Shown: positions 1,076 through 53,574 of the stretch, in pieces
Numbering within the stretch: the first letter of the stretch is position 1
Layout: each line of letters opens with the position of its first letter
Sequence record: PQ850617.1
Source: Escherichia phage ManiMatter_Bas94
Reading direction: 5' to 3' (one strand)
Length of the DNA stretch: 64,000 nt
The notes under the pieces: generated by a model
What the model was told of the DNA's origin: nothing
What the model saw: the letters and a program-made list of their open reading frames with translations, nothing else
Database searches by the model: none
Made by a program: the position numbers and the translations under genes

Positions 1076-1828
1076 ATGGCAATGCCAGATGTTCAATACC
1101 CCATCAATACCTATGGGTGGCTAAAGAAGGCCGTGGCCCTCTGGGCAGATAGGGACGATGATGAATTTGTTAATCAAATTCCAAACTTTATTAACTTTGC
1201 AGAGAAAGAGATTTATCGTAACTTACGTATCCCTCCTCTGGAAAAAGAAGTGTATTTAGATATTAAAGATGGAGTAGCTTACATTCCTCCTGATTACTTA
1301 GAAGCTCAATGGATGATGAGAGCCAAAGATGGTACAATCTTCCAAGTAACATCTCCTGAAGAGATTAGCTATCGTAGACAGCACGGAACAATTAATCCAT
1401 CTCATTGGAATAACCAACCTGTTAACTTTGCTCGTTTCGGTAGTCGTTTCATTTTCTACCCTAGCATCGAAGCAGATACTCCGTACTACCCTGATGATGG
1501 AAGCCCTTTGATTCCAGCAGAAAACTCAGTGATTCTTAGTTATTATGCAGACCCACCGGAGTTCCATGAAGATACAGACACTAGTGCTATTCTTACTATC
1601 GCACCAGAGCTTCTTCTGTATTTCACCCTACGTCATGCTTGTCTGTTTGTTCAAGATGATAACGGTGTTCAGAAATGGTCAGCATTAGGAAAAGCTATCC
1701 TTGATGAAATGGTAGAACAGAATAAGAAACAAGAGTACTCAGGTTCACCTATCGCAATTCCGAATAACATGACCCGACTTCAGAGCAGCTTGCCTGATAT
1801 TTATGGTATTCGTACTTCTCGTGTATAA
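1076..1828 (+). CDS. Hypothetical virion protein (250 aa)
   Basis: ORF with SD AAGGAGG; position between capsid and tail-fibre genes. Confidence 0.5.
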   Translation: MAMPDVQYPINTYGWLKKAVALWADRDDDEFVNQIPNFINFAEKEIYRNLRIPPLEKEVYLDIKDGVAYIPPDYLEAQWMMRAKDGTIFQVTSPEEISYRRQHGTINPSHWNNQPVNFARFGSRFIFYPSIEADTPYYPDDGSPLIPAENSVILSYYADPPEFHEDTDTSAILTIAPELLLYFTLRHACLFVQDDNGVQKWSALGKAILDEMVEQNKKQEYSGSPIAIPNNMTRLQSSLPDIYGIRTSRV

Positions 1829-1837
1829 GGAGATAAT

Positions 1838-4486
1838 ATGATCGTTTATAATAACCAAGCACCTGATGCAGTGAATAACGTTGGGCAGTTTGGTGCTACT
1901 GAAGGCTCTATCGGAGCTTACAAGCAAGCGGCAGAATATGCAGCTGATTCTAAGTATTGGTCACTGTTGGCAGAGGCTAAGTTTGGTACAGTTGATGACT
2001 TGATTGCTCAGGTTGAGATTCTATACAAACAAGGTGTTCTATTAAGAGAAGATATTGAAGACTTAAAACAAGACTTCATTGCACAAGATGCTCGTTTGAT
2101 GAACCTCATTGCTCAAACTAACGCAGCTGTAGCTGATGCAAATAATGCAGTTGCTCTGATTAATCAGAAACTTGTAGAAGTTCAGAATCAACTCGACGTT
2201 CTGTTGGGAATGTCTGTTGACGTAACTACACTTCCTCCGGGAACTCCGGCTACTGGCTCTTTTAATCCGAACACTGGTGTAATCTCTCTGGGTATCCCAG
2301 AAGGTGATCCCGGAAAGGATGGTTCTGTTACTGACCTATCTGCTGCTCCTACCGGTACACCGGAGCTGGGGGACATCGGTTTCTATGTTGACAAAGATGA
2401 TAACATTGTTCACAAAACAACTCTCGAAGATATTGCAAACCTGATCCCATCTGTTCGTTCTGTTTCAGTTAACGATGGCCCTGCGCTTGACGGAGAAGTT
2501 GCTCTAACGCTTAACAAAGAGACGGTAGGTTTAGGGAATGTTCTGAACGTGGCTCAGTACAGCCGCCAAGAGATTAATGATAAGTTTGACAAAACAACTA
2601 AAACCTACCAATCGAAAGCCGAAGCTGATGCGGATGCTCAATACCGACAGGTAGGAGAAAAGGTTTTGGTGTGGGACTCAACGAAGTATGAATTCTATAC
2701 TGTTGCAGCGAATAAAACCCTTACTCCGGTTAAAACAGAAGGTCGTATCCTAACTGTTAACTCCCGTTCTCCTGATTCAACTGGTAACATCGATATCGTA
2801 ATCCCAACAGGAAACCCATCTTTGTATTTAGGGGAGATGGTAATGTTCCCTTATGACCCAGCTAAAGCTGTCTCCTATCCGGGCATTCTTCCTGCGGACG
2901 GTCGTTTGGTGTCAAAAGAATCTGCTTTGGATTTAGGCCCATCCCTTATCAGTGGACAACTCCCTGTTGTTTCTGAAACAGAGTGGCAAGCTGGTGCTAA
3001 GCAATATTTCTCTTGGGGTAAATTAGCCGATGGCATCACTGATGCAGATTCTACTAACTATATCAATATCCGTCTTCCTGATTGGACAGGCGGTGAGGCT
3101 ATTCGATCCCCTGATTCTGTAAAAGATAGTGCATATAAAGGTAATGTTCAAAGTCAGGTCCCTTATGTAGTCACTGTAAATAACCAAGCTCCTGATGAGA
3201 TTACAGGTAACGTCAATATCTCCAGATCTATCTTAGGTGCTGCTGCTGCTGGTGCAAACTCTGATATAACATCTCTCGCAGGGCTTACAACAGCGCTTTC
3301 TGTCACTCAGGGTGGAACAGGTGCAAAGAATTCCAATGATGCTAAGGTAAATTTAGATTTAGACAGAATAGAGCAAGGTTCTGGAGAGACTAAGATCCTA
3401 TCTCCAAATAAAGAAACCTACATGTTTGTTGATAATGACGGGTGGGGTTGTTACCGTACCACGGCTGGGTTGGTCGGTACTGTAGCTTTGTCAGTTGAGA
3501 GAGGGGGCACTGGAGCAACAGATGTTGCTAGTGCAAGAGATAATCTAGGACTTAAATCTCTTTCTACATTAGATACTGTTCCAGTAACAAAAGGTGGGAC
3601 AGGTGCTATCACTGCTGCGGAGGCTAGGTCTAATTTAGGTCTTGGTTCTGTTGCTACTCTTAGTAACGTACCAATCGCTAGTGGTGGTACAGGTGCTAGT
3701 GATGCTGCCGGTGCAAGGTTTAATTTGGGGTTGGGAAATGTTTCTACTCTGGACAACGTACCAGTTGCTAGTGGTGGTACAGGTGCTAGTGATGCTGCCG
3801 GTGCCCGAAGCAACCTCGGAGCGCTGAGTAACACTCCAGCAAACACAGGTGCAGGTAATACTGGTGCGCGAGTCCAACATGCCACCGGAAGAGGTCTGTT
3901 TACTTTAGACATGTTTAACTGCTACTGGTATATGCAGCCAGAGGATACTAACTTCTGGGTTGCCCACGGTGTGTCATATGCAGGGCCTAATGGCGAAGCC
4001 TCAGAGTATGGTCGTATATCTTACGCAATAAAGATTGCAGATGGAACAACAAAATATGTCCATTGTCTTACAAACAAAAACACCATCATTGATACAGGCG
4101 GATTTATCAAAGCGGCATCTCCGGTAGTTAACATTTATGCCAACGGTCGGTATGAAACGAACGATGAGTCTGAGGGGGTTAGTGTCATCCGGCAGGGTAT
4201 TGGTGAATATCTGATTACCGGTTGCCTCGGTCTTAACTCTGATGCAAGATGGGGTGGGGTGGATGGGGGGTTTGAAATCCCAACAGATCGCAACAAGCAA
4301 CCTAGGATTTGGCTGGACTATGAGGTTAAAGAAGATGGTTCTATTTTAGTTAAAACCTATCACAGAACTCACCCAACCTCTCCAGTTTTTGCTAGAAACG
4401 AGATAGAAGGTTTTTCTGATGGGGACCCTATTGATATTCCAAGTGATGCTTTTATCTCAGTTCGTGTAGAGATGCCAGCTGAGTAA
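1838..4486 (+). CDS. Tail fibre protein with GGTGA/ARxNLGL repeats
   Basis: Repeated motif ...GGTGA(S/T)DAAGAR(S/F)NLGLG... about 5 times (aa ~480-640), N-terminal coiled coil. Confidence 0.7.
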   Translation: MIVYNNQAPDAVNNVGQFGATEGSIGAYKQAAEYAADSKYWSLLAEAKFGTVDDLIAQVEILYKQGVLLREDIEDLKQDFIAQDARLMNLIAQTNAAVADANNAVALINQKLVEVQNQLDVLLGMSVDVTTLPPGTPATGSFNPNTGVISLGIPEGDPGKDGSVTDLSAAPTGTPELGDIGFYVDKDDNIVHKTTLEDIANLIPSVRSVSVNDGPALDGEVALTLNKETVGLGNVLNVAQYSRQEINDKFDKTTKTYQSKAEADADAQYRQVGEKVLVWDSTKYEFYTVAANKTLTPVKTEGRILTVNSRSPDSTGNIDIVIPTGNPSLYLGEMVMFPYDPAKAVSYPGILPADGRLVSKESALDLGPSLISGQLPVVSETEWQAGAKQYFSWGKLADGITDADSTNYINIRLPDWTGGEAIRSPDSVKDSAYKGNVQSQVPYVVTVNNQAPDEITGNVNISRSILGAAAAGANSDITSLAGLTTALSVTQGGTGAKNSNDAKVNLDLDRIEQGSGETKILSPNKETYMFVDNDGWGCYRTTAGLVGTVALSVERGGTGATDVASARDNLGLKSLSTLDTVPVTKGGTGAITAAEARSNLGLGSVATLSNVPIASGGTGASDAAGARFNLGLGNVSTLDNVPVASGGTGASDAAGARSNLGALSNTPANTGAGNTGARVQHATGRGLFTLDMFNCYWYMQPEDTNFWVAHGVSYAGPNGEASEYGRISYAIKIADGTTKYVHCLTNKNTIIDTGGFIKAASPVVNIYANGRYETNDESEGVSVIRQGIGEYLITGCLGLNSDARWGGVDGGFEIPTDRNKQPRIWLDYEVKEDGSILVKTYHRTHPTSPVFARNEIEGFSDGDPIDIPSDAFISVRVEMPAE

Positions 4487-4495
4487 ATAAAACAT

Positions 4496-4514
4496 GCTCC
4501 CTTCGGGGAGCTTT
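4496..4514 (+). other. Intergenic stem-loop (GCTCCC-TTCG-GGGAGC), weak U-tract
   Basis: Perfect 6-bp hairpin between genes; possible attenuator or RNA processing site. Confidence 0.3.
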
Positions 4515-4528
4515 ATGGAGGATTATAA

Positions 4529-6673
4529 ATGTCTAGAGAATTAATGCCCAAATCTGGGATAATGATGCCTCATGTGGTAGTTACTAGAGATGCCGCAGTT
4601 GTGGGTGTGTCTACAGTTGATGGCGTGGCAGGTGCTGTTAATTTAACAGATAAATATCTACAAAAGTCTGATGCTGAAGCAACATATCAAACGAAAGCAG
4701 AAGGGGCTACTAAGCAATATGTAACCGATGCTATTAACCCTATTATGACAAATGCTCTGTTTAAAGATGACCCTTTTGTCAATAATGATACACCTATCCG
4801 CTCTGGTGGTGGTAATGGTGTTGAATCAGTGGATATGATTAAAGTTACCCCCGAGAACTCTATCAAACTAGGGAGTTATGCTTCTTCTGTTCAGGGGGTT
4901 GAGATTCACTCTGCTGGTCGTGTTCAGGTTGTTGATCAGAATGATGGTGGGGTAGAAACTAAATACCCTATCTATTCTAAGCGTTTCCGTCCTGAGATTG
5001 AAGATTTACCTTTTGCTGCAATCGGTTCTTATGTTAAGGATTCTCAAGGTCGTACTGTTGGTGTAACCCGTACTGGTATTAACTCTGATATCAAACAACT
5101 CACACAGAAGGTGACTTTCACTCAACCAGTTACTGTTCCTGATGCGGTTGGTGACTATGATGCAGTTACTTTGAGACAGCTTCGTAACAGTGGTGGCTCT
5201 GGCGGTCCTACCATGAGTGGTATCTCTAACTTTGGTATTGGTGATTTCCACTTACGTGATAGTCGAGCTTTCATCCCAGCTTTTGAAGTTCCCTCAGATG
5301 GTCAGCTTTTAAATCGTGCTGATTATCCTGACCTGTGGGCTTATGCTCAACTATTAACCCCTATTAGTGATTCTCTTTGGGTAGGAGATATTACCCAAAG
5401 AGGTAGATACTCCACAGGCGATGGCACCACCACTTTCCGTGTCCCTGACCGAAATGGTATTCAGCTTAACTCCCTTGCAGCTCTTTATGGACGAGGTGAT
5501 GGGGGTGCTTCCGCAGCTAATGGTATGGTTTTTGACTCTGCCGCTCCTAACATCTACGGTGACATTGGTGGTGTTGTAGCCTATGGTCAGACTGGTGCTA
5601 TTATGCGAGGTCAGGAAGAAACTGCACTAGCTCCACAACCAGTTACAGGAAACGGTGTATTAAGGGTAAGCTTGGATGCTTCCAAATCAAGTCCGATATA
5701 CGGTCGCAGTAACTCAGAAATCATGGGTCGTAACTTTGTAGGTGTTTGGACTATTCGTGCTCATGGTGGTTTTACTGCTGCTAACACATCTTGGTCAGTT
5801 ATTAATAGTGATGCAAACCGTCCTGCTGGTGGAACTCGAGCAACTAGTGGTTCTGTTGTTGCTGAATATAAAATAGGTTCAGAAGTAGAAGCCTCTACTA
5901 CGCTCCAAACTGATGCTTATATCGACGGAGCTTATTATGGGATTATCAATGTTTATAATAAAACCAAAGGAGTTACCAAGCAATTAGCTTTTGATGATTC
6001 TGGAACCCTGAACTCTGATAGGTATGCTGCTCGGTTTGGGACAATGATGGCTTGGAGCCAAACAGGAAGTCGCAGAGGGACGTTTTCTACAGACAACCAA
6101 GGGATCGGTGCTAACTACTCTTTTAACTCTATACTGAGTGCTTCCCAAGCATCCCAAGGTGGATACAAAACTACTACCCATGTAGGGATGATTCACAACG
6201 ATGCTGGAACTTTTGCTGATTCTTGTTGGCACGTAGCTGGGGATGAAGACAACAAATATGGTTGTCGTTTAACTCTTCGACCAAACAGAAATGAGCTTTT
6301 CTATTACACTTGGCAGCCTGGCGCATCAGGAGTTTACACTCTTGCTATGAATCCTGTGTCAGATGAAAGGTTGAAACACAACATTCAAGATCTCTCGCCT
6401 GATGAAGCAATTCGTGCGATTAAAGGTTTGGATTTCAAATCGTTTGTATATAACAACGACGAACAAGGAAGAACTCGTCGTGGTGTTATCGCACAGCAAG
6501 CAGAAAAGGTAGAACCTCTTTATGTTAAGACTCGTAGGTTCCATGACAACGACGGCGTAGAGCAAGAACAGAAAGAGCTGGACTCAGCTCCTATGCTCCT
6601 CGATACTATGCAAGTTGTTCAAGACCTGTTGAAACGTATTGAAGTTCTAGAAGCGAAGTTAGCAGAGAAGTGA
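4529..6673 (+). CDS. Tail fibre/spike with collar-like domain and C-terminal intramolecular chaperone (peptidase S74-like) domain
   Basis: GDGTTTFRVPDRNG collar-type motif; C-terminus SDERLKHNI...GVIAQQAEKVEPLYV matches the self-cleaving chaperone domain signature. Confidence 0.75.
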   Translation: MSRELMPKSGIMMPHVVVTRDAAVVGVSTVDGVAGAVNLTDKYLQKSDAEATYQTKAEGATKQYVTDAINPIMTNALFKDDPFVNNDTPIRSGGGNGVESVDMIKVTPENSIKLGSYASSVQGVEIHSAGRVQVVDQNDGGVETKYPIYSKRFRPEIEDLPFAAIGSYVKDSQGRTVGVTRTGINSDIKQLTQKVTFTQPVTVPDAVGDYDAVTLRQLRNSGGSGGPTMSGISNFGIGDFHLRDSRAFIPAFEVPSDGQLLNRADYPDLWAYAQLLTPISDSLWVGDITQRGRYSTGDGTTTFRVPDRNGIQLNSLAALYGRGDGGASAANGMVFDSAAPNIYGDIGGVVAYGQTGAIMRGQEETALAPQPVTGNGVLRVSLDASKSSPIYGRSNSEIMGRNFVGVWTIRAHGGFTAANTSWSVINSDANRPAGGTRATSGSVVAEYKIGSEVEASTTLQTDAYIDGAYYGIINVYNKTKGVTKQLAFDDSGTLNSDRYAARFGTMMAWSQTGSRRGTFSTDNQGIGANYSFNSILSASQASQGGYKTTTHVGMIHNDAGTFADSCWHVAGDEDNKYGCRLTLRPNRNELFYYTWQPGASGVYTLAMNPVSDERLKHNIQDLSPDEAIRAIKGLDFKSFVYNNDEQGRTRRGVIAQQAEKVEPLYVKTRRFHDNDGVEQEQKELDSAPMLLDTMQVVQDLLKRIEVLEAKLAEK

Positions 6674-6677
6674 GATA

Positions 6678-6695
6678 AGCCCCTTCGGGGGCTTT
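6678..6695 (+). other. Intergenic stem-loop (AGCCCC-TTCG-GGGGCT)
   Basis: Perfect hairpin after tail fibre gene, weak U-tract. Confidence 0.3.
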
Positions 6696-6744
6696 AGTAG
6701 TAAGTACCCTTAGTAAGTAATGAAACTAATATATCCCAAGAGGT

Positions 6745-6753
6745 TAATATATA
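6745..6753 (+). promoter_or_regulatory. TAATATATA variant of the TAATGTATA element
   Basis: One-mismatch copy 13 nt upstream of ATG 6766. Confidence 0.3.
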
Positions 6754-6765
6754 GGAGACACTCAA

Positions 6766-6984
6766 ATGAAAATGATGAAACAAGCTGCATATGGTTTAGT
6801 TTGTTTAGGTGCAGGTGTTGTGGTGTCAACCGCAGTTCCTGTAGGCGCAGTTCTTCCATTAGTAACTGTCCCTGCTCCAGTAGAGAAACTTAGTTCTCAA
6901 TGTAAGCAGCGAACCATTCAAAATAATCTAGTTGTTATTTGTCCTGATGCTGAATCTAACGCTCTGAGAAAGATACTACCTTAA
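6766..6984 (+). CDS. Small membrane protein, holin candidate
   Basis: 72 aa, long N-terminal hydrophobic stretch, immediately upstream of lysozyme gene. Confidence 0.4.
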   Translation: MKMMKQAAYGLVCLGAGVVVSTAVPVGAVLPLVTVPAPVEKLSSQCKQRTIQNNLVVICPDAESNALRKILP

Positions 6985-7013
6985 TTTAAAGGGACCACAA
7001 AAGGAGGTTAGAA

Positions 7014-7505
7014 ATGGATAACGCCGCATTGCCACCTGTACAACTAAACTTAAGTCCAGCTGGAATGGAATTCATCATGAAGCATGAGGGTATGAGAACC
7101 AAGGCTTATAAAGATTCCGCAGGTATCTGGACGATATGTGTAGGGGCTACGCGCGATATGAATGGTTATCCGGTTAGACAAGGATTAACGTATTCTATAG
7201 AGGATTGTCTAGCTCTGCTAGATAGAGACACACAAGACTCTGTTCGTGCTACTCAGAAGAACATAAAGGTTCCTTTACTAGTTCATGAGTTTGATGCACT
7301 CACTTCTTTCAGCTTCAATGTTGGCAGTGGTGCTTTGAGCACATCTAAGTTAAGGAAGGTTATCAATGGAGAGGTCAAAGGTGATGTATACTCAGAGTTT
7401 CTTCGTTGGGATAAAATTACGGTGAATGGAGAGAAGCAGAGGAGTCAGGGTCTTCATAACAGAAGGGTTGCAGAAGCTGATCTTTACACCGAAGGTAAAT
7501 ATTAA
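7014..7505 (+). CDS. Endolysin, T4-type lysozyme (GH24)
   Basis: FIMKHEGMRTKAYKDSAGIWTICVGAT places the Glu/Asp/Thr catalytic triad as in T4 lysozyme. Confidence 0.8.
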   Translation: MDNAALPPVQLNLSPAGMEFIMKHEGMRTKAYKDSAGIWTICVGATRDMNGYPVRQGLTYSIEDCLALLDRDTQDSVRATQKNIKVPLLVHEFDALTSFSFNVGSGALSTSKLRKVINGEVKGDVYSEFLRWDKITVNGEKQRSQGLHNRRVAEADLYTEGKY

Positions 7506-7517
7506 TGGAGGTGCCTT

Positions 7518-8321
7518 TTGGCTATCGAAACTAATGCGGTAGTTGTTACCGATTTAAACCCGCTCTATCCTAGAGACAGGGATTACATCTACGAAGGGGC
7601 GGCTCAAATCCGCCTCATTAAACAAACATTACAGAACACATTCCCAAATGTTACAGAGCCAGTTCAGTTGGACTCAGATTCTCTCAATATTCTGGCTAGC
7701 AAAGTTACCTTTACTGGTGACTCTATGGATGTTGGTGGGTTGATGATCAAGAATGCCACTCCGGGTACAGGTGATAGCGATGTTGTCACTAAAGGCCAGA
7801 TGGAAGCTTTCATGCAGAACTGGATGGCTAATAAACTTTACAGGATTGGCTCTTACTATATCACTGAAGAAGATATTAACCCCGGTGATAGTTCTTCTCT
7901 TGGTTTTGGCTCTTGGGCTAAAGTGACTGGTGTTATCATGGGTACTGGTGTAGTAAACCCTGATGGCTCTGTTCCTAATGCTCAGAGGGTTGAATTCCAA
8001 GCAGGTGGTACTGGTGGTCGTGTATTCAATACCATTCGTACAGAGAACATACCTTTGATGACAGTTAATGGCTCCAGCTTCTCTTTATCCAGCAACACCC
8101 ACAGTCACAACATGGTATTTGGTCGTGGAGATGCTAGCGGTCATAACAGCTCACCTAATTGGTATAGTCCGGGTGGTGGTTACAGTCAGAGAACGGAGAA
8201 TGATACACACTCTCATACAATCTCTGGTAGTGTGAGTCTTGGTCGTGACGATATCTCTCGTCAACCTATCAACACTTTGCCACCATTCAGAGCGGCTCAC
8301 ATTTGGAGACGTATTAGCTAA
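7518..8321 (+). CDS. Tail fibre-like protein with HxH motifs
   Basis: THSHN...SGHN...THSHT His-x-His motifs of the kind seen in fibre tips; N-terminal fibre-like region. Confidence 0.45.
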   Translation: MAIETNAVVVTDLNPLYPRDRDYIYEGAAQIRLIKQTLQNTFPNVTEPVQLDSDSLNILASKVTFTGDSMDVGGLMIKNATPGTGDSDVVTKGQMEAFMQNWMANKLYRIGSYYITEEDINPGDSSSLGFGSWAKVTGVIMGTGVVNPDGSVPNAQRVEFQAGGTGGRVFNTIRTENIPLMTVNGSSFSLSSNTHSHNMVFGRGDASGHNSSPNWYSPGGGYSQRTENDTHSHTISGSVSLGRDDISRQPINTLPPFRAAHIWRRIS

Positions 8322-8330
8322 GGAGGAATT

Positions 8331-11300
8331 ATGGCGCTGTATCCAATAAAGTCACTAGGTGCTGTAGGCGTTATCGCTGATCAGGCTCCGACAGACTTAG
8401 CTCCTAATGCTTTCACTAATGCTATAAATGCTCGATTTGTTGAGCAGAGAGTGTTTAAGACGGGGGGCAATGCCCCTCTTTCTTATGTAGATGAAGATAA
8501 GGATTTAACCCCTCTGTCTTTCGTGTCTATGCCTTTCGATTATTATAGCGCAGGTAATAGCTTTCTTGTTGTAGGTACGAATAAGAAGTTATATAAACTG
8601 ACAGATGAAAGCTTGACTGACATTAGCCGTAAGGTTGCTACAGTCACTAAGAAGGCTTCTGCCTCAATTAAGATCTATCCAGTTGTTTCTCAAATCGTTC
8701 CTAAAGAATCAACTATTTCAATGAACTTCAATCAGACTAAGAATCTAGAAGTTTCTCTTCTTCCTGCTGATGCTAACAATACCGACCTTGTTTGGGAGGT
8801 TAGTAATTCAACCTATGGAAGTATTGCAGTAGACCCTAATGATTCTAAACTTGCTACTCTAACATCTTTTGAGAGAGAGGGGAATCTTGTAGTAACCATC
8901 TCTACTGCTGATGATTCTGTAGTGGCTCAGATTGCTGTGAACATTATAGATGGTGATTCGGGAATCTTCTTGAGTCAGGACACTGTTACTATCCGTAAAG
9001 GAGGGACTACCACTCTTACGGCTGTTACTGGTAAAACCCCTGTTACTTGGTCTAGCAGTAATGCTTCTATTGTATCCGTAACCCCTAACGCTAATTCTCT
9101 AACTGCTGTTATTACTGCTAATGGTGAGGGCAACGTAACAATCACTGCCGATAATGGAACGAAGACTGCTTCTTGTGAGGTTGTTTCTATACCTCAGATT
9201 GATAGCATCTCTTTAAGCCAGTCGGATGTTATTGTAAGCAGAGGTTCTCAGTACATCTTAACTGCTACCCTTTCTCCTGCTGATGCCCCTAATCAAAACA
9301 TTACTTGGACCTCTTCTAATCCAAATATTGCAACAGTATCAGGGACTAGTACACAAGGGACGATCAATGCCTTACTTGCTGGATTTACTGAGATTACGGC
9401 TACCACTGAAGAAGGTAACAGAGTTGCTGTCTGTACTGTACGAGTAGATTTAGCTGGAAGGGCGATGAGAACAAGTGCTATGGCATTTGCTGCACCTGCA
9501 TCAGAACCAATTGAATCACAAGAGGAAGAAGTAGTAACTTCTCCTGAAAGTGAAGAGACGGTTTATTTTGCTGATCCTGTGTCTGGTATCGATACGTCAG
9601 GGATGTATGAAGGTAATAACTTCTACGACTACTCTAACGTGAACGACATTGAAGGTTTTGCAAGAGCTTCTTTACTAGAAACCCCTTTGTCATCCGTAAC
9701 CTTGGATGTTGTCAGTGCTTCTCTTGATGTTGGTGAGGAAATAGTTATTACAGCTACAGCTTCTCCAGAAGGTGAGTATTCCTATCAGTGGTCTGTCGAT
9801 AAGACTGGTTATGTTTCTACAACTTCAGTTACTGGTAAATCTATCAAACTGGTTGCTCTTCGTAAAGGAGAGATTAACGTAACATGTACTGTCAGTCAGA
9901 TGACTCAGAAAGATTACGATGCTTTTGATGATTACCCTTGGTATCACGCTGTTATCTCTAACTGTGCAGTTGCTACAACTCACTATGAAACTCCTCAGGT
10001 AAAAGAGTTCGAATCAGAATACTTTGTAGACCTTCCGGGGTGGGGTGAGCAAACAGTTGTTGATAGTGATGGAAACCCTTCAGTCAAAAAGTTTAACTGG
10101 AAATGTGAGAGAGTAAGATCTTTTAACAACCGTCTTTTTGCTCTGAATATGAGAGAGGCTAATGCTTCTGGTGTTACCACTAACTACCCTCTTCGTCTTC
10201 GTTGGTCTAATTTTGCCAACGAGAACAAAGCTCCTACTTTATGGGATGACTTTGCCTATGATCGAGTTGTGTCTTCGGACTTGGCTTCTAACATCGTAGG
10301 ACAGACTCAGGCTTTAGAAAATGGATATGCTGGTTACATCGACTTAGCTGACTCTAACGGCAGCTTGATTGATATCCTACCTCTTAAAGATTACTTGTTC
10401 GTTTATACAGAGTTTGAAACGTACATTGGTTCTCCAACTAATAACACGTACCAACCTCTGATGTTCAAGAAACTCTTTAACGATTCCGGTATCCTTGCTC
10501 CTGAGTGTGTAGTAGAAGTTGAAGGTAGTCATTTCGTAGTTACTCAGAACGATGTAATCTTACACAATGGTGCAACTAAGAAGTCAATCGCTTCTAACCG
10601 TGTTAAGAATATGCTAATTAATGAAATATGTCTGGTTAACCCTTTAGCTACTCGAGTACATTTGCATCAGGATAAGAAAGAAGTTTGGATTCTGTACGTA
10701 GGTCCGGGAGAACCAAAAGAAAGCTTCGCTTGTACTAAAGCTGCTGTATGGAACTACGAGTTTGATACTTGGTCCTTCCGTACTATTCCTTATGCTCAGT
10801 GTATCGGTCTAGTTGACCCTCCTGTTTTAGAGAGAGGTCCAATCTGGTCTGACTTCCAAGAGATCACTTGGGATGACCAATCTATCAAAGAACTCGTTTG
10901 GAGAAAGGATGCAACAAACTTTAGACAGAGGGTTACGATAGTAGGTTCGTTCTTGAGGGGGTTCTATCAAGTGGATGTAGGTGCTCTTGATTATTTCTAT
11001 GATAGGCTTAATGATAAGATTATAGAAAAACCACTGGAGATGAGGTTAGAGAGAACTGGCATTGATTTTGATAACATCACTAATGAGTGGAATCAAAAGC
11101 ATATCAATAGGTTCAGACCTCAGACGACAGGTTCTGGTACGTATACTTTTGAGGCGGGTGGTAGTCAATTCTCTAACGAGTATGGTCATCCACATACATC
11201 CAAGACGTATACGATTGGTGTTGATAGGCATGTCTCGGTGAGACTGAACCATCCATACCTTTTCTATAATGTTATAGATAATGATGTTAACAGCAATGCT

Positions 11301-11348
11301 GCTATCAATGGATTAACGATAGAGTTTGCTGTTGGCGGGCGGAGATAA
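8331..11348 (+). CDS. Large structural protein with several Ig-like (Big_2-type) domains
   Basis: Repeated ~80-aa segments such as TVTIRKGGTTTLTAVTGKTPVTWSSSNASIVSV... Confidence 0.55.
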   Translation: MALYPIKSLGAVGVIADQAPTDLAPNAFTNAINARFVEQRVFKTGGNAPLSYVDEDKDLTPLSFVSMPFDYYSAGNSFLVVGTNKKLYKLTDESLTDISRKVATVTKKASASIKIYPVVSQIVPKESTISMNFNQTKNLEVSLLPADANNTDLVWEVSNSTYGSIAVDPNDSKLATLTSFEREGNLVVTISTADDSVVAQIAVNIIDGDSGIFLSQDTVTIRKGGTTTLTAVTGKTPVTWSSSNASIVSVTPNANSLTAVITANGEGNVTITADNGTKTASCEVVSIPQIDSISLSQSDVIVSRGSQYILTATLSPADAPNQNITWTSSNPNIATVSGTSTQGTINALLAGFTEITATTEEGNRVAVCTVRVDLAGRAMRTSAMAFAAPASEPIESQEEEVVTSPESEETVYFADPVSGIDTSGMYEGNNFYDYSNVNDIEGFARASLLETPLSSVTLDVVSASLDVGEEIVITATASPEGEYSYQWSVDKTGYVSTTSVTGKSIKLVALRKGEINVTCTVSQMTQKDYDAFDDYPWYHAVISNCAVATTHYETPQVKEFESEYFVDLPGWGEQTVVDSDGNPSVKKFNWKCERVRSFNNRLFALNMREANASGVTTNYPLRLRWSNFANENKAPTLWDDFAYDRVVSSDLASNIVGQTQALENGYAGYIDLADSNGSLIDILPLKDYLFVYTEFETYIGSPTNNTYQPLMFKKLFNDSGILAPECVVEVEGSHFVVTQNDVILHNGATKKSIASNRVKNMLINEICLVNPLATRVHLHQDKKEVWILYVGPGEPKESFACTKAAVWNYEFDTWSFRTIPYAQCIGLVDPPVLERGPIWSDFQEITWDDQSIKELVWRKDATNFRQRVTIVGSFLRGFYQVDVGALDYFYDRLNDKIIEKPLEMRLERTGIDFDNITNEWNQKHINRFRPQTTGSGTYTFEAGGSQFSNEYGHPHTSKTYTIGVDRHVSVRLNHPYLFYNVIDNDVNSNAAINGLTIEFAVGGRR

Positions 11349-11353
11349 CAACA

Positions 11354-11382
11354 AGGGGCTTCGTGCCCCTTTTATTGTTTTT
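11354..11382 (+). terminator. Rho-independent terminator
   Basis: Hairpin AGGGGC-TTCGT-GCCCCT followed by TTTATTGTTTTT. Confidence 0.6.
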
Positions 11383-11392
11383 GGAGGAACTT

Positions 11393-12361
11393 ATGGGTGC
11401 AGGTGGTTTTCGTAAGAACACTGGTCGCAATAACACCACACTCCCGTACAACGTTGGGTTTCTCAATAATGTACAGGACACAGAAACTTATAACGTAGCT
11501 GTTTATGATGAACTACAGAAAGTCAGCACAGCTACTAACCAAATGTTCCAAGCTATAGATGAAATTCACGAAGAGATTGACGTTCGTATCAAAGCTCTTC
11601 ATGCGATGAATCTACAATTTGATGAGCTTGAGAATAGAATTACTACAGAGATAGAGACAGCTATTGCCGATATCCAAACACAGATGGGGAATCTCTCCAC
11701 TGAAGATATTTGGGATAATTCTGTTCAACCTCCTGTAAAATTAGAAAGCACTGTATCTGGCTTTAAGACGAGTATTGAAGGTAACACGACTAAGATTCAA
11801 ACGGTAGAAGGTATTGTCAACGACCAAGGTCAAGAGATTGCTTTAGTTCAGACAGAGATTCAAAACATTAATGGAAGCCTATCTCAGTATATGAAGCTCT
11901 CTGAGTATGAAGCTACGTGGGGTGTTAACTCTTCTGTTAATGGTCAGTACGCTGGAGTTAAGCTAACTAACAATGGAACAAACAGTCAATTCCAAGTAAC
12001 CGCTAACAAGTTTGTTGTCGGTGATGGTACGACAGGGAATACACCATTTGTGTTTGAGAATGGAAGAGCTAGGATGGAGTTCGCTGATATAAAGAACGTC
12101 AACATCACAACAGCTCAGGTTGCCAACGCTAGGATTCAGTGGGCACAGATTGATAACGTATCCATCTCCAACGCCCAAATTCAGAACTTGTCAGCGGATA
12201 AAATCACTGCTGGTTCTATGTGGGGTTCTAACTGGAGACTTACTGTTGGGGGTGACTTTGTTATGGGCGGCACAGGTGGGGCACAATTGTGGATGAATGG
12301 GAACAGGATAGACTTCTATGATGGAAGTGGTGCTCTGAGAATTAGGATAGGGAGTTGGTGA
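11393..12361 (+). CDS. Hypothetical structural protein (coiled-coil rich)
   Basis: ATG 11393 preceded by GGAGGA; product has extended heptad-like region. Confidence 0.45.
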   Translation: MGAGGFRKNTGRNNTTLPYNVGFLNNVQDTETYNVAVYDELQKVSTATNQMFQAIDEIHEEIDVRIKALHAMNLQFDELENRITTEIETAIADIQTQMGNLSTEDIWDNSVQPPVKLESTVSGFKTSIEGNTTKIQTVEGIVNDQGQEIALVQTEIQNINGSLSQYMKLSEYEATWGVNSSVNGQYAGVKLTNNGTNSQFQVTANKFVVGDGTTGNTPFVFENGRARMEFADIKNVNITTAQVANARIQWAQIDNVSISNAQIQNLSADKITAGSMWGSNWRLTVGGDFVMGGTGGAQLWMNGNRIDFYDGSGALRIRIGSW

Positions 12362-12362
12362 T

Positions 12363-13382
12363 ATGGCATATGGAATATGGTGTCAACCGGTAGGTCCGGG
12401 GCCAGCCGCCCCTGCCTCTCTTTTTATAGATAGTAATTTAACATTTCCACAATATCTAGGAGCATACAATATATCTCCTTCGTGGAGTGCTAGAAATGCT
12501 TCTTTTAACGTAGGCTCTTTTGATGGTCAAGGTGAGTTATTAATTGTCCCGACTAGTAGACTTATTCAAGATTATTATGTAGGGACAGATTTAATGCCTA
12601 GTTTTAGTTATGTAACAGGTATAGGGACTTCTGGACAAACAGTAAATATTAACATAGAGCCTGCTGGAGCTAGTGGTAACAATAACAGAAACTTCCCAAT
12701 GTCTTTCCAAGCATATAAACTCTGGCCTAGAGGTAATAGAAGCTACGGAATAACTTTCTCAAACTCAGCAGATTTCTTTTCTATCTCTGATAGTGGGGTT
12801 GTTGGTCAGTGTGTTTGGGCGTACAGAGGGGCTGTAGGAGACGGTTTTACTGTCCCTAATGCTGGCCCCAACGCTCTAGTATTTGCCAACTGGAATCAGG
12901 GTGGGGTGTGTGCTTCTTACAACGCAAGCAACGGTCAAATGATCATAACCCACGATAGATCAAACCAGTCTGGCAGTAACAGAGGTGCAGTAATATATGA
13001 TATGAGAATTGCTGTTTTTGCTAGTGGTGTGGGTGTACCAGAACATAATGGAGGTCTGAATATATACTCTCCCGGAACTACAACTTGTGTATTCTCTACT
13101 TACAGGACTCCGTTTGCTATCAGCAGGTTCTTCCCATCTAGTGGGGGTTATACAGGTCTAGGCATTCCTATGATGTGTATGAATGTCACTAATGGAGCCA
13201 TAACAGCGCAAGGTGGTGGATGGATGTGGGTTCATGAAAGATCTCATACAATGAGTGGTACGTCAGTAGGAACAGGCTTTGGCCCACTCGTGGCTAACTG
13301 GACTGACCGATACCCAATCAACGTTAACATAAACCTAGGATTCAATTACCCAATGTTGGAAGGTTCTTTAATTTATGCATAA
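12363..13382 (+). CDS. Hypothetical structural protein
   Basis: 339-aa ORF tightly coupled to upstream gene. Confidence 0.45.
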   Translation: MAYGIWCQPVGPGPAAPASLFIDSNLTFPQYLGAYNISPSWSARNASFNVGSFDGQGELLIVPTSRLIQDYYVGTDLMPSFSYVTGIGTSGQTVNINIEPAGASGNNNRNFPMSFQAYKLWPRGNRSYGITFSNSADFFSISDSGVVGQCVWAYRGAVGDGFTVPNAGPNALVFANWNQGGVCASYNASNGQMIITHDRSNQSGSNRGAVIYDMRIAVFASGVGVPEHNGGLNIYSPGTTTCVFSTYRTPFAISRFFPSSGGYTGLGIPMMCMNVTNGAITAQGGGWMWVHERSHTMSGTSVGTGFGPLVANWTDRYPINVNINLGFNYPMLEGSLIYA

Positions 13383-13391
13383 GGAGATATT

Positions 13392-14174
13392 ATGGCAATT
13401 AGAATGGGTATCGAAGAACTAGACCCAATGGTGCAACAGGCTTCAAAGAAGTATGGAATACCAGCTGCTTTGATTCATGCTGTAATCCAAAGGGAGTCTA
13501 GCGGTCGTCCTACGGTGGCCTCCGGAACTGGTCCTGTAGGTTTAATGCAGATCAGTAAAGGAGTAGCCAAAGATTATGGTTACAAACTAGAAGATAGACT
13601 TGACCCGGCAAAGAACATTGATATGGGTGCTCGTTACATCAGAGACAATCTGAAAGCTTTTAATGGTGATGTTAAGAAAGCGATGGTTGGTTATTCAGAA
13701 GGTATTAGTGGTGCTAAGCAGATGTTCGCTGGTAAAAGAGGTTTTACTTCTCAGGCTCTTGACTCAATGAATAACAAACACTTTCTCCCTTTCTATGGTG
13801 ACGCATCTTCTCAGATTGCTAACCCTATTGGAGCTTTACAAGCTGTTCAGCCCGTCAACCAGTTCAGTTCGGACTATTTAGACAGAGAGAAGGCTGCACA
13901 AGCTCCAACTCAGGCAGAGATTGCTGTTTCTAAGACAGGTGCTTTAGGTGGTAATCCTGTAGAGTTTTACTCTGATGAAGTGCAGGAAGGTGAAGACCAG
14001 AAGCCCCAACAGAACTTTGGTAATGCAGTATTAGGGGTGGCTGCTATGCTTGCTGGTAAACCTCCTACCTCTCAAACAGTTCAGAGGGCAAGTGCACCTC
14101 ATGCAGCAGGTTCTCAGTACAGCCCACAAACACAAGCAGTGCTTAGACGTCTGGCTAGCATTGGTGTTAAGTAA
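13392..14174 (+). CDS. Lytic transglycosylase domain protein (probable virion-associated)
   Basis: AVIQRESSGRPTVASGTGPVGLMQIS soluble lytic transglycosylase-type motif with catalytic Glu. Confidence 0.7.
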   Translation: MAIRMGIEELDPMVQQASKKYGIPAALIHAVIQRESSGRPTVASGTGPVGLMQISKGVAKDYGYKLEDRLDPAKNIDMGARYIRDNLKAFNGDVKKAMVGYSEGISGAKQMFAGKRGFTSQALDSMNNKHFLPFYGDASSQIANPIGALQAVQPVNQFSSDYLDREKAAQAPTQAEIAVSKTGALGGNPVEFYSDEVQEGEDQKPQQNFGNAVLGVAAMLAGKPPTSQTVQRASAPHAAGSQYSPQTQAVLRRLASIGVK

Positions 14175-53093: not shown

Positions 53094-53381
53094 TTAATAT
53101 ACTAATCCGTGTAAGAGAAACACTCTATTAGTTAACTCTGCTTTAGCTCTGTAATAAGCCTTAGAACCTAACAGGCGGCTCTTAACAAAGAACTTGATGT
53201 CATTGCTTACGTCTTGTATTAAACGCTCCTGTACAGCTTCTGAGGAGCTATTAATTGAATCAATTAACACCTTTGTAGATGTGTAATTCACATCACCACT
53301 CCTTACCGGTTGTAGTTGTAGAGCCACCACACCACTGTGCATCAGATAAGGTTTTAGTCTCCTCATCCATTGCTGCACCAT
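53094..53381 (-). CDS. Hypothetical protein
   Basis: 95-aa ORF. Confidence 0.35.
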   Translation of the reverse strand: MVQQWMRRLKPYLMHSGVVALQLQPVRSGDVNYTSTKVLIDSINSSSEAVQERLIQDVSNDIKFFVKSRLLGSKAYYRAKAELTNRVFLLHGLVY

Positions 53382-53574
53382 TCATGCATGAGATACCATT
53401 GTAACGCATATCAATTTCGCCAGAAGGAACCTTCTCACCTTTATGCCAGCGAGATACACAAATACCTTCCACTGCTACTGCACACCATCCATCAGGACGG
53501 CTCTGTACGCAGCCTGTAAGGGCCACACAGACAATGAAGATACAGATTAAGGATATTACACCACTCCAACTCAT
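53293..53574 (-). CDS. Cys-rich lipoprotein candidate
   Basis: From internal Met: MSWSGVISLICIFIVCVALTGC with lipobox-like LTGC. Confidence 0.35.
   Translation of the reverse strand: MSWSGVISLICIFIVCVALTGCVQSRPDGWCAVAVEGICVSRWHKGEKVPSGEIDMRYNGISCMNGAAMDEETKTLSDAQWCGGSTTTTGKEW

Follow-up and report, generated by a model that had tools for sequence, protein, structure and literature searches.

A Candidate LptDE-Type Receptor-Binding Protein Encoded behind the Tail Needle Gene in a Kuravirus Tail Module

The gene following the tail needle gene in the stretch of Escherichia phage ManiMatter_Bas94 analyzed here (PQ850617.1; 64,000 nucleotides, hereafter the window) encodes a homologue of SU10 gp19. 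Its only significant match in the PDB, by sequence and fold alike, is the Oekolampad receptor-binding protein, which was solved bound to LptDE (chain 9rpt_C; Dunbar 2025, PMC12685063). The reading that we favor, by a modest degree of confidence, is that Kuraviruses use LptDE as their terminal receptor through a cap at the needle tip. The gp19 homologue is the new part of this work, and it is the most informative gene of the region, missed in the preliminary description of the window. The block of genes as such, with the lysis cassette that it contains, is already known, since it is syntenic gene for gene with that of SU10, whose virion was solved by cryo-EM with roles assigned to the tail parts (PMC9509320).

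Gene Order and Relatives

The window derives from a Kuravirus (Gordonclarkvirinae), and its closest overall relative is phage Bas93 (97% DNA identity). The DNA of the block is 90–97% identical to that of >60 Kuravirus genomes with the same gene order. The ORF block is conserved across these genomes and is not a chance pattern. All ORFs listed in the preliminary description are real, at the coordinates given there and on the plus strand. The region is almost certainly the Kuravirus tail and adsorption module of the SU10 type, gene for gene, because of the DNA identity to Bas93 (97%) and to >60 Kuraviruses (90–95%), the one-to-one synteny with SU10 gp11–gp24, and the full-length matches to the cryo-EM chains 7z47_D, I, and G and 7z4b_EA.

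In SU10 (Kuravirus; PDB 7Z44–7Z4B; Siborova et al. 2022, PMC9509320) and in phiEco32 the gene order is identical to that of the window, that is, adaptor, proximal and distal long fiber, holin, lysin, short fiber, nozzle, needle, gp19, transglycosylase, and ejection proteins. The adaptor, short fiber, nozzle, and needle are 93–100% identical to those of SU10. On the contrary, the proximal long-fiber protein of SU10 has 786 aa (882 aa in the window) and differs in its C-terminal part, the distal fiber is 64% identical, and the gp19 homologue of the window is another allele (46% identity). In Bas93, the chaperone domain is truncated, three extra small ORFs are present, the holin is 73% identical, and the proximal fiber has one repeat fewer. 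Judged on SU10 proteomics, most of the listed proteins are virion proteins, as had been expected: gp12, gp13, gp16, gp17, and gp18 were detected, whereas gp14, gp15, and gp19 were not.

Adaptor and Long Tail Fiber

The tail adaptor gene (SU10 gp11 homologue; 1076..1828, plus strand; Pfam SU10_adaptor, E 3e-29) adjoins the described range just upstream. Its product shows 100% amino acid identity to those of SU10, LAMP, and MN03, and it is the docking site for the long tail fibers (PMC9509320).

The next two genes, previously taken for two independent fibers, encode instead a single long fiber in two halves, proximal (SU10 gp12) and distal (gp13). The proximal protein (882 aa; 1838..4486, plus strand) matches PDB 7z47_D (E 0, residues 1–499). 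Its N-terminal anchor is conserved, and its variable C-terminus contains a Phage_tail_C_2 domain (Pfam PF25670, residues 748–881). The repeats noticed earlier in this protein are five units of ~30 aa of the GGTGA...NLG type within residues 492–660 (positions 492, 556, 586, 616, and 646).

The distal protein (714 aa; 4529..6673, plus strand) indeed carries a self-cleaving intramolecular chaperone, with a Peptidase_S74 domain and a Ser611/Lys616 dyad. In detail, the S74 chaperone is C-terminal (residues 611–714, nt 6359–6670), with the Pfam match at residues 611–664, and a weak Collar match is located at 293–309. The N-terminus is conserved and the receptor-binding regions are variable, departing from Bas93 after residue ~330. 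Residues 203–713 match residues 559–1071 of the L-shaped tail fiber protein 8hqz_d (E 5e-107), and residues 253–495 of the proximal protein match residues 242–458 of the same chain. Both genes match in order and are therefore collinear with one T5-type fiber protein. However, 8HQZ chain d is a single protein, whereas the fiber of the window is split over two genes and placed on a podophage adaptor.

Two-part fibers of Gordonclarkvirinae, Wifcevirus, and some Tequintaviruses have a T-shaped distal protein composed of a Gp12-like RBD1, a T5-like RBD2, and an intramolecular chaperone (PMC11990801). The distal protein of the window resembles them in its conserved N-terminus, followed by variable receptor-binding regions and the S74 chaperone; the T shape is as published for these relatives. 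The adaptor dodecamer carries six long fibers, each formed by a trimer of the proximal and a trimer of the distal protein. The latter provides the variable receptor-binding domains and sheds its C-terminal chaperone once folded.

Lysis Genes

The putative holin (72 aa; 6766..6984, plus strand; phrog_11161 holin family, E 1e-48) is preceded by an AGGAGA ribosome-binding site and has a single N-terminal transmembrane segment (Kyte–Doolittle maximum 2.14, residues 6–37). The GH24 (T4-type) endolysin (163 aa; 7014..7505, plus strand; Pfam Phage_lysozyme, E 2e-32) shows the triad E25/D34/T40 (E25-x8-D34-x5-T40). It is soluble, with neither a hydrophobic N-terminus nor a signal-anchor-release (SAR) sequence. 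The SU10 counterparts, gp14 and gp15, were not detected by proteomics of SU10 virions; the two are late genes and not virion parts. Holin and lysozyme lie among the tail genes, as first described, but their place between the long- and short-fiber genes is not peculiar to the genome. It is a fixed slot throughout the lineage, occupied by other holin genes in distant relatives, and it is ancestral rather than a recent insertion.

Short Fiber, Nozzle, and Needle

The short tail fiber (SU10 gp16 homologue, 267 aa; 7518..8321, plus strand) matches PDB 7z47_I over its full length (E 6e-171). The HxH motifs seen earlier in this protein are of the metal-binding type and read HSH, one at residue 195 and the other at 231. 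Similarly to T4 gp12/gp37-type tips, with their HxH metal sites, and to the C-terminal domain of T4 gp10, it combines these motifs with a Gp10_C domain. Unlike the T4 tips, the SU10 short fiber also contributes a structural element to the wall of the extended nozzle, which it joins during infection (PMC9509320). Its conservation among Kuraviruses (92–99%) argues against a role in host range.

The 1,005-aa protein (SU10 gp17 homologue; 8331..11348, plus strand; PDB 7z47_G, E 0, residues 1–1005) contains Ig-like (Big_2) domains, in accordance with the preliminary description, but it is the hexameric nozzle (PDB 7Z47 chain G) and not a fiber or receptor binder. It is 97% identical to SU10 gp17 and 97–100% to the proteins of relatives. 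The nozzle is a component of the tail tube that combines Ig-like nozzle domains in tandem with a beta-propeller (PMC9509320), and six short tail fibers are attached to it.

A terminator-like hairpin with a T-rich tail (11353..11371, plus strand) separates the nozzle and needle genes. The likeliest start of the needle ORF (11363–12361) is ATG 11393, preceded by a GGAGG ribosome-binding site, as GTG 11363 falls within the hairpin. The two proteins formerly left unassigned are both products of real genes; one is the trimeric tail needle (SU10 gp18 homologue, 322 aa; 11393..12361, plus strand; PDB 7z4b_EA, E 8e-207; Pfam Phage_Tail_Tip) and the other is the gp19 homologue. The needle consists of a coiled coil and a C-terminal Phage_Tail_Tip/beta-prism part, whose homologue is the distal ~230-aa portion of siphophage J-like tip proteins. 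BLASTP matched it to J of two LptD-type siphophages, JeanPiccard (residues 905–1107 of 1136, E 2e-6) and RuthEpting (residues 868–1079 of 1148, E 5e-5), and tblastn to the extreme C-terminus of Bas11 J. The needle plugs the channel. Like P22 gp26, it is a coiled-coil trimer released from the tail at ejection (PMC9509320), and its distal domain resembles the C-terminal region of the lambda gpJ central fiber. Unlike either, it unites both features and would carry a separate cap protein. Behind the gp19 homologue, a lytic transglycosylase (SU10 gp20 homologue; 13392..14174, plus strand; Pfam SLT, E 2e-23; role in PMC9509320) is the first of the ejection proteins, which continue downstream.

The region had first been read as four or more independent fibrous receptor-binding proteins, forming a branched multivalent apparatus with an inserted lysis cassette. 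The label "tail fiber protein" does occur four times among public Pfam/PHROG-type labels, a T shape with two receptor-binding domains has been predicted for the distal long-fiber protein in relatives, and the group is reported to have a broad lysis host range (PMC11990801). True fibers are present and there is more than one receptor-binding structure. Nevertheless, a branched array is hardly credible: the solved SU10 virion contradicts it, with a nozzle (1,005 aa), a needle (322 aa), and a single fiber from the first two genes, the short fiber and nozzle are conserved instead of diversified, and the ancestral lysis slot speaks against a recent insertion.

The DUF6453 Protein

The gp19 homologue (12363..13382, plus strand) matches Pfam DUF6453 over its full length (92.5 bits, cut-off 25) and is a candidate needle-tip receptor binder. 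Annotations still label it "hypothetical" or "membrane protein"; it has no transmembrane segment. It starts one base after the needle stop, with its ribosome-binding site within the needle gene, and therefore it is probably translationally coupled to the latter. By phmmer, residues 22–316 match residues 18–299 of 9rpt_C (E 1e-10). The AF2 model (pLDDT 78, pTM 0.80) retrieved the same chain with Foldseek (E 1.9e-12, probability 1.0, TM 0.75), the next match having an E of 0.16. SU10 gp19 is also above the DUF6453 threshold, and the family further includes the Oekolampad receptor-binding protein (E 2e-121) and proteins of the receptor-binding loci of JeanPiccard, RuthEpting, ISF002, and Klebsiella NJR15. 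The identity to proven LptD binders is 22–26%.

The gp19 homologue is only 44–46% identical to those of LAMP, SU10, phiEco32, MN03, and 172-1, whereas the flanking proteins are 89–100% identical. On the other hand, it is 90% identical to that of ECBP2, a phage of a different genus with flanks of ~80%, and 47–52% identical to proteins of distant metagenomic relatives. The alleles fall in identity classes of 98, 68, 57, 52, and 44%. The first 30 aa and a pair of core motifs are retained. By these comparisons, the gene behaves like a host-range cassette swapped between phages. The conserved N-terminus is common to siphophage receptor-binding proteins, and in Klebsiella phage NJR15 the DUF6453 gene is placed after J on the same strand, as it is after the needle gene in the window.

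The Exclusion Lipoprotein

Outside the described range, the window encodes an Rtp45-like superinfection-exclusion lipoprotein (93 aa; 53293..53574, minus strand) with a lipobox LTG|C, a conserved Cys pair, and a GGAGG ribosome-binding site ahead of the gene. It was matched by tblastn with the exclusion proteins of JeanPiccard and RuthEpting (E 6e-16 and 9e-12), and it matches PDB 9rps_D, that is, Rtp45 bound to LptDEM (E 3e-16). Its PF24052 score is 121.9 bits (cut-off 27), compared with 124 bits for the JeanPiccard protein. No similarity to T1 Cor was found, and the FhuA-type phage T1 showed neither a DUF6453 protein nor a PF24052-scoring Cor. Nearly all Gordonclarkvirinae encode the lipoprotein (about 97 records at ≥60% identity), and at least 10 records are common to the 60 DUF6453 and the 60 lipoprotein matches listed.

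In siphophages, Rtp45-type lipoproteins are the functional partners of LptD-type receptor-binding proteins. The LptD module of small siphophages consists of the receptor-binding protein (Oekolampad bas18_0025, Rtp44; PDB 9RPT) and Rtp45 (PDB 9RPS), beside a J-like tip gene (Maffei 2021, PMC8594841; Dunbar 2025, PMC12685063). The window shares with it the two Pfam families, the length and fold of the receptor-binding protein, the N-terminal M[AG]xGI and core motifs, the adjacency to a gene with a J-homologous distal part, and the horizontal exchange of the cassette. On the contrary, the carrier belongs to a short-tailed phage and is a detachable trimeric needle, not a siphophage central fiber, and the exclusion gene is 40 kb off on the opposite strand. 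In Klebsiella Weberviruses the two genes are likewise apart, by about 10 kb. The siphophage binders are proven, whereas the gp19 homologue is a predicted one with low identity and negative SU10 proteomics.

Receptor Use

Whether virions bear the gp19-type protein at the tip of the needle is evenly balanced in our estimate. The main evidence against the favored reading comes from two proteomic analyses of SU10. The cryo-EM study, with the major gel bands analyzed, scored SU10 gp19 as "in virion: no; detected by MS: no". Nor did it appear among the 34 proteins that shotgun Orbitrap analysis identified in PEG-concentrated SU10, a set in which the 3-copy needle reached 75% coverage and even terminase and DNA polymerase left traces. 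No extra tip density is mentioned for the SU10 needle map, which has 10–15 Å resolution and imposed C3 symmetry. The non-detection is softened, but not removed, by the few tryptic peptides of 7–30 aa (only 6, vs. 14 for the needle) and by the mass of 36.6 kDa, at which gp19 would co-migrate with the 715-copy capsid protein.

These negative results fit a rival account, which we consider a serious one though rather less than probable: the module is an ordinary SU10-type tail, host recognition is due to long and short fibers alone, as in the published two-RBP model, and gp19 is a non-virion late protein, which might help the needle to fold or assemble, for instance, or be released at lysis in soluble form to mask the receptor. 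In the BASEL study, two receptor-binding proteins are regarded as bona fide, and the dependence on O-antigen is strict. On this account the lipoprotein gene would have been inherited for the exclusion of competing LptD-dependent siphophages and not of Kuraviruses, as blocking LptD protects the cell from Rtp-/Dhillonvirus-type competitors whatever the Kuravirus receptor. However, cassette-like exchange at 44–46% identity, between phages with neighboring genes of 95–99% identity, is unexpected for an assembly helper, and direct receptor binding is the only characterized function of the DUF6453 family. Both the conserved pairing with a J-like distal fiber and the N-terminus shared with siphophage receptor-binding proteins fit a docked cap, and the two proteomic studies were limited in sensitivity for a 1-copy, K/R-poor, capsid-co-migrating protein.

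At such low identity to proven LptD binders, the receptor could be another outer-membrane protein. A needle-tip binder with a target other than LptDE (such a protein or an LPS core epitope), different alleles possibly binding different receptors, is improbable in our view. The deep allele classes are hard to reconcile with a single, highly conserved essential target. Nevertheless, Rtp44 and the Oekolampad protein, both proven LptD binders, share only 33% identity, which makes deep divergence compatible with one receptor. LptD is the target of every characterized family member, its requirement in JeanPiccard having been shown genetically (PMC8594841), and the co-resident lipoprotein is specifically of the LptD-blocking Rtp45 type.

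The BASEL Gordonclarkvirinae depend on O-antigen and fail to plate on rough K-12, a host with exposed LptD, and ES17-resistant mutants had lost O-antigen with lptD not changed (PMC11990801). Therefore, LptD alone is clearly not sufficient. According to the favored model, the long fibers would first bind O-antigen and bring the needle to the membrane. The gp19 homologue, a monomeric receptor-binding cap whose conserved N-terminus and 121–150 motif would dock it to the J-like distal domain of the needle, would then engage a protein of the outer membrane, for which the LptDE lipopolysaccharide translocon is the most likely candidate. Once bound in this way, the particle would be committed to releasing the needle, extending the nozzle, and ejecting its DNA. 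The infected cell would produce the Rtp45-like lipoprotein, which, acting from the periplasm, would alter LptD and so block further particles, or the progress of progeny on debris. Published reviews give the SU10 receptors as unknown and describe the needle as contacting the outer membrane (PMC10743462); for Kuraviruses, use of LptDE as a receptor is, in our judgment, somewhat more likely than not.

Organization of the Tail Module

The first 22 kb of Escherichia phage ManiMatter_Bas94 (PQ850617.1) share 97.3% DNA identity with Escherichia phage AidaStucki (Bas93), 95% with LAMP, and ~90% with over 60 further Kuraviruses, among them SU10, phiEco32, NJ01, and 172-1. Kuraviruses are common, resistant to restriction systems, and candidates for therapy (ES17, SU10, and the BASEL isolates). 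At the end of the rightward late operon and the start of the leftward genes, near 22 kb, the GC skew turns from positive to negative.

The gene order is that of the Kuravirus or SU10 type, that is, adaptor, proximal and distal long tail fibre (LTF), holin, lysin, short tail fibre (STF), nozzle, needle, gp19, transglycosylase, and ejection proteins. The module shows one-to-one synteny with SU10, phiEco32, LAMP, MN03, 172-1, ECBP2, and YF01. Full-length homology to the solved SU10 tail chains 7z47_D, 7z47_I, 7z47_G, and 7z4b_EA was found with E values from 6e-171 to 0, and the adaptor (1076-1828) matches the Pfam family SU10_adaptor. In the per-gene comparison, the adaptor, short fibre, nozzle, needle, and transglycosylase (13392-14174) are 89-100% identical to those of LAMP, MN03, 172-1, and SU10, and the C-terminal parts of both long-fibre proteins are the variable ones among relatives.

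In the cryo-EM study of SU10, gp11 is the adaptor, gp12 and gp13 are trimers forming the proximal and distal parts, respectively, of a single long tail fibre, gp16 is the short tail fibre with HxH sites, gp17 is the hexameric nozzle protein, gp18 is the trimeric tail needle, and gp20-24 are ejection proteins; the holin and lysin (gp14 and gp15) are absent from virions (PMC9509320). The proteins detected in SU10 virions are gp11, 12, 13, 16, 17, 18, and 20-24, and those undetected are gp14, 15, and 19. According to the published infection mechanism, attachment of the long fibres to the cell is followed by rotation of the short fibres and by straightening of the nozzle proteins, which form an extension of 28 nm; the needle departs, and the ejection proteins come after it (PMC9509320).

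The preliminary description had read 1838-13382 as an array of fibrous proteins with a lysis cassette embedded among them. All of its ORFs are present where it had placed them and the observation itself is confirmed, but the interpretation was only partly right. The SU10 cryo-EM assignments and the per-gene comparison resolve the array into one two-part long fibre and one short fibre, together with a tube component and the needle. Since such a fibre gene block, including the embedded lysis cassette, is already known and textbook for this phage group, the observation alone adds little. The value of the region lies in the conserved gene following the needle, annotated as "hypothetical" or "membrane protein." Reviews describe the Kuravirus receptors as unidentified and consider it unclear what the needle and short fibres recognise; a 2023 review lists the SU10 receptors as unidentified, with the needle probably sensing the outer membrane (PMC10743462).

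Upstream of the adaptor gene, a slippery heptamer GGGAAAG is located at 432-438, near the end of the major capsid gene and before an Ig-like ORF (ORFs 52-456 and 462-974). It matches the programmed -1 frameshift which fuses the capsid and the Ig domain in SU10 and phiEco32 (PMC4281155). The Ig-like ORF is followed by a strong terminator-like hairpin (979-1002) with a stem of 10 bp and a T tail. The sequence TAATGTATA, which we take to be the phiEco32-type late-promoter element, occurs exactly at 1034-1042, ~35 nt upstream of the adaptor gene, and with one mismatch (TAATATATA) at 6745-6753, just upstream of the holin gene. Both occurrences are anecdotal, and TAATGTATA is not enriched in the window (21 matches at ≤1 mismatch vs. 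20.3 expected). The sigma-70 promoter scan of the window is uninformative, since it returned fewer sites in the real sequence than in the shuffled one (16 vs. 28.7).

Fibres, Nozzle, and Needle

The proximal LTF protein (1838-4486, 882 aa) is nearly identical over residues 1-499 to the SU10 "putative tail fiber" chain 7z47_D and ends in a Phage_tail_C_2 domain. Its earlier description as a repeat-containing fibre is borne out by five ~30-aa repeats of the GGTGA...NLG type, starting at residues 492, 556, 586, 616, and 646; the Bas93 protein has one repeat fewer. Tandem repeats at the DNA level were rejected as their source, because only two weak 18-nt arrays were found and the repeats are visible in the protein.

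The distal LTF protein (4529-6673, 714 aa) is the fibre for which a self-cleaving chaperone had been proposed. In agreement, it carries a C-terminal Peptidase_S74 domain (PF13884, E 2.7e-14, residues 611-664) with a Ser611/Lys616 dyad in NPV↓SDERLK, the predicted cleavage site. It matches residues 559-1071 of the L-shaped tail fibre protein 8hqz_d from a T5-like phage (E 5e-107). Residues 253-495 of the proximal and 203-713 of the distal protein correspond to residues 242-458 and 559-1071 of 8hqz_d, that is, to successive parts of a single 1,076-aa protein. In these alignments, the long fibre of Kuraviruses resembles 8hqz_d divided between two genes. For the Gordonclarkvirinae, the distal fibre protein is predicted to be T-shaped, with Gp12-like and T5-like receptor-binding domains and a chaperone (PMC11990801); its domains are exchanged horizontally and the short fibre is conserved (BASEL study, PMC11990801).

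The STF protein (7518-8321) matches the SU10 chain 7z47_I from end to end (E 6e-171), and the HxH motifs noticed in it are present as HSH at residues 195 and 231. The 1,005-aa Ig-domain protein (8331-11348) had been counted as a fibre, which does not hold: it matches chain 7z47_G across all 1,005 residues and is the homologue of gp17, a component of the tube.

The needle (11393-12361) matches 7z4b_EA. The ATG at 11393, with a GGAGG site upstream, is favoured as its start over the GTG at 11363, which lies inside a terminator-like hairpin. Needle residues 50-308 align to residues 905-1107 of the 1136 of the J protein of the siphophage JeanPiccard (E 2e-6) and to residues 868-1079 of the 1148 of the J protein of the siphophage RuthEpting (E 5e-5); the C-terminal 172 aa match the extreme end of the Bas11 J protein.

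The Lysis Cassette

The holin and the T4-type lysozyme are located inside the fibre array, as had been noted, between the distal long-fibre and the short-fibre genes. The putative holin (6766-6984; phrog_11161, E 1e-48) has the features expected of this class, namely small size, at least one transmembrane segment (one, hydrophobic residues 6-37), and an endolysin neighbour, its gene ending 30 nt upstream of the lysozyme gene. It was rejected as a lipoprotein, since its "GLVC" is not a canonical lipobox. The GH24 lysozyme (7014-7505; Phage_lysozyme PF00959, E 1.9e-32) shows the Glu-x8-Asp-x5-Thr triad (E25/D34/T40). The SAR endolysin label found in MT129653 was not adopted, because the N-terminus MDNAALPPVQLNLSPAGMEF is not hydrophobic; the 19-residue hydropathy maximum (0.85) falls at residue 86. 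The lysozyme gene is followed directly by the short-fibre gene, and no Rz/Rz1-type spanin pair was seen in the cassette.

The slot of the cassette is identical in Kuravirus and Suseptimavirus. Two distant metagenomic relatives have the same slot with two other holin-family genes (phrog_2359 and phrog_2508) and without a lysozyme. Thus, the slot is ancestral, and exchange has affected only its content. The slot content was read at 4036-5936 of L011 and 3967-5063 of L013, and these relatives carry an inserted endonuclease VII-like gene on one or the other side of the short-fibre gene.

Among close relatives, the holin is mosaic, with 99% identity to LAMP and 73% to Bas93. The comparison with Bas93 points to a probable recombination junction at the fibre/lysis boundary. 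Window positions 6673-7014 and Bas93 positions 7316-8216 diverge sharply, and the Bas93 distal fibre is truncated in its chaperone domain and followed by three small extra ORFs. A GC-rich hairpin (AAGCCCCTTCGGGGGCTT, 6678-6695) without a T tract is located directly 3′ of the distal fibre gene and may serve in RNA stability or processing upstream of the lysis genes.

A DUF6453 Protein Encoded after the Needle

The gp19 homologue (12363-13382, +) matches Pfam DUF6453 with 92.5 bits (cut-off 25; residues 25-314 on profile positions 18-290 of 291), and the receptor-binding protein (RBP) of the siphophage Oekolampad scores 405 bits on the same model. Its sole sequence match in the PDB is 9rpt_C, the Oekolampad RBP solved on LptDE (E 1e-10, nearly full length). 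An AlphaFold2 monomer model based on 26 homologues (pLDDT 78.3, pTM 0.80) retrieved the same chain by Foldseek (E 1.9e-12, probability 1.00, target-normalised TM 0.75), as the sole PDB match with E <0.1 (next, E 0.16). The predicted fold is the same as that of the solved Oekolampad RBP.

Besides the Oekolampad protein, DUF6453 includes receptor-binding-locus proteins of JeanPiccard, RuthEpting, ISF002, and Klebsiella phage NJR15. The LptD dependence of JeanPiccard is genetically proven (PMC8594841), and LptD is the predicted target of RuthEpting. A joint alignment covers the full length, with a common N-terminal M[AG]xGI motif and 16 invariant columns; the identity of the window protein to proven LptD binders is only 22-26%. 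The receptor-binding-locus proteins of the FhuA-type phage T1 do not belong to DUF6453.

The text of the SU10 paper does not mention gp19 (PMC9509320), and in YF01, whose annotation postdates the SU10 structure, the homologue is "hypothetical." The PHROG-derived label "membrane protein; moron" does not fit the DUF6453 gene, whose product has no transmembrane segment (maximum hydropathy 1.21). In the form [quoted passage not shown] it has spread via phrog_1265 (for example, to Bas93_0018, ACQ52_gp019, and Bas85_0027), and the phrog_1265 label is also attached to proven or predicted LptD-binding RBPs of siphophages. For DUF6453 homologues, this label is a systematic mis-annotation. Among the papers searched, none ties Kuravirus to LptD, DUF6453, or Rtp45, and the Privateer proteome paper contains nothing on the DUF6453 gene.

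Gene Context and Allele Exchange

A single base separates the needle stop codon from the start of the DUF6453 gene, whose ribosome-binding site lies within the needle gene. In LptD-type siphophages, the J-like tail tip protein presumably carries the RBP at its distal end (PMC8594841). In the window, the DUF6453 gene likewise adjoins a gene for a J-like distal fibre, the needle being homologous to the distal 200-230 aa of the J-like proteins of JeanPiccard, RuthEpting, and Bas11; in Klebsiella phage NJR15, it is located downstream of J on the same strand. This context supports a cap that would be docked on the needle.

The identity of the DUF6453 protein to the window is 100% in Bas93 (flanking proteins about 98-100%), 90% in ECBP2 of the genus Suseptimavirus (about 80%), 44-46% in LAMP, MN03, 172-1, SU10, and phiEco32 (89-100%), and 47-52% in the distant metagenomic relatives (57-73%). 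A graded series of alleles was found in a large protein database, with 98, 68, 57, 52, 47, and 43% identity. By these comparisons, the gene behaves like a candidate host-range cassette.

Three segments are kept between alleles, that is, the first 30 residues, WPRxNRxYGITFSNxADxFSISDSGxVGQC, and HNGGLNIxSP...CVFSTxRTPF, and the remainder falls to 10-40% identity. The monomer model has low confidence in the first two of these (residues 1-25 and 124-146), as would fit an interface ordered only on a partner. The 9RPT map likewise shows poor order in the tail-proximal region of the Oekolampad protein.

An Rtp45-Like Lipoprotein

In LptD-type siphophages, a small lipoprotein gene (Rtp45 in phage Rtp) lies beside the receptor-binding gene. 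On binding LptDE from the periplasmic side, Rtp45 distorts the EL4 and EL5 loops, and RBP binding is lost through this distortion (PMC12685063). The window contains a related gene at 53293-53574 (-), found by tblastn with the lipoproteins of JeanPiccard and RuthEpting (E 6e-16 and 9e-12, respectively) and provided with a GGAGG ribosome-binding site. Its product scores 121.9 bits on Pfam PF24052 (cut-off 27; residues 3-93 on profile positions 1-80 of 80), the score of JeanPiccard's own exclusion protein being 124 bits, and matches 9rps_D, that is, Rtp45 in the LptDEM complex (E 3.3e-16). Residues 19-22 form a lipobox, LTG↓C, and the segment RPDGWC-x7-C can be aligned with Rtp45 RPDGWCATQASGVC, the Cys pair corresponding to the Rtp45 disulfide Cys30-Cys38. 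Based on these matches, the protein is a putative Rtp45-type superinfection-exclusion lipoprotein and a candidate LptDE binder. The Cor protein of T1 stays below the PF24052 cut-off of 27 (17.7 bits) and gave no BLASTP alignment with the window lipoprotein, which is thereby set apart from the FhuA-type Cor/Llp proteins.

The lipoprotein is found in about 97 Gordonclarkvirinae records at ≥60% identity. Outside this subfamily, it occurs in the same siphophage groups as DUF6453, and at least 10 records are common to the 60 matches listed for each protein. Co-variation with the gp19 allele was not seen: in phiEco32, the lipoprotein, annotated "putative phage lipoprotein," is 92.5% and gp19 46% identical to the window. 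Such independence would be expected of a lipoprotein that contacts LptD and not the RBP.

In the window, as in Klebsiella Weberviruses, the lipoprotein gene is unlinked to the DUF6453 gene, whereas the two are adjacent in LptD-type siphophages. With these two genes, the genome thus appears to hold both halves of an LptD module, unlinked. The lipoprotein gene lies among small ORFs of the leftward block, a position consistent with early or middle expression. Homology and context suggest a new reading, in which the DUF6453 gene and the distant lipoprotein gene would form a siphophage-type LptD recognition/exclusion pair on the needle of a podophage.

LptDE as Candidate Terminal Receptor

In the proposed mechanism, the detachable needle of the short-tailed Kuraviruses, and of Gordonclarkvirinae in general, would bear an RBP cap acquired from small siphophages, namely from their central fibre. 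LptDE, the essential LPS translocon, would be the terminal receptor of Kuraviruses, and the Rtp45-type lipoprotein, by blocking LptD, would provide the matching superinfection exclusion. The BASEL paper describes two receptor-binding proteins for Gordonclarkvirinae (PMC11990801). The cap would add a third host-range determinant to this two-fibre model, since it is encoded by a freely exchanged cassette whose alleles are 44-46% identical between otherwise 95-99% identical phages.

The main evidence against a cap comes from proteomics. The supplementary table of the SU10 study, in which major gel bands were analysed, records gp19 as absent from the virion and undetected by MS (PMC9509320). Shotgun Orbitrap analysis of PEG-concentrated SU10 reported 34 proteins, with gp19 missing; the same run covered 75% of the three-copy needle and recovered traces of terminase and DNA polymerase. 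These negatives are moderate and not decisive evidence, because gp19 is poor in Lys/Arg (6 usable tryptic peptides vs. 14 for the needle) and would co-migrate with the 715-copy capsid protein. The SU10 needle map has a resolution of 10-15 Å with C3 symmetry imposed (PMC9509320), so a monomeric cap would be blurred in it. The chances that the DUF6453 protein is carried on the virion are about equal either way.

A second constraint concerns the receptor. The Gordonclarkvirinae of the BASEL collection strictly need the O-antigen, and ES17-resistant mutants lost it (PMC11990801); LptD therefore cannot be sufficient. Being essential, LptD would escape knockout screens. By homology, the balance tips slightly toward LptDE as the Kuravirus receptor. 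The full combination for Gordonclarkvirinae, with the borrowed needle cap, LptDE as terminal receptor, the matching lipoprotein, and the cap as third host-range determinant, has an even prospect of being correct.

If true, the widespread "membrane protein; moron" mis-annotation would be corrected, and it would become clear why a virulent phage has an LptD-blocking lipoprotein. A compact cassette for re-targeting Kuraviruses would be identified. Podophages would join siphophages in targeting LptD, an essential and conserved protein that is also a drug target, and a receptor-binding cap together with its J-like carrier domain would be able to move between tail types.
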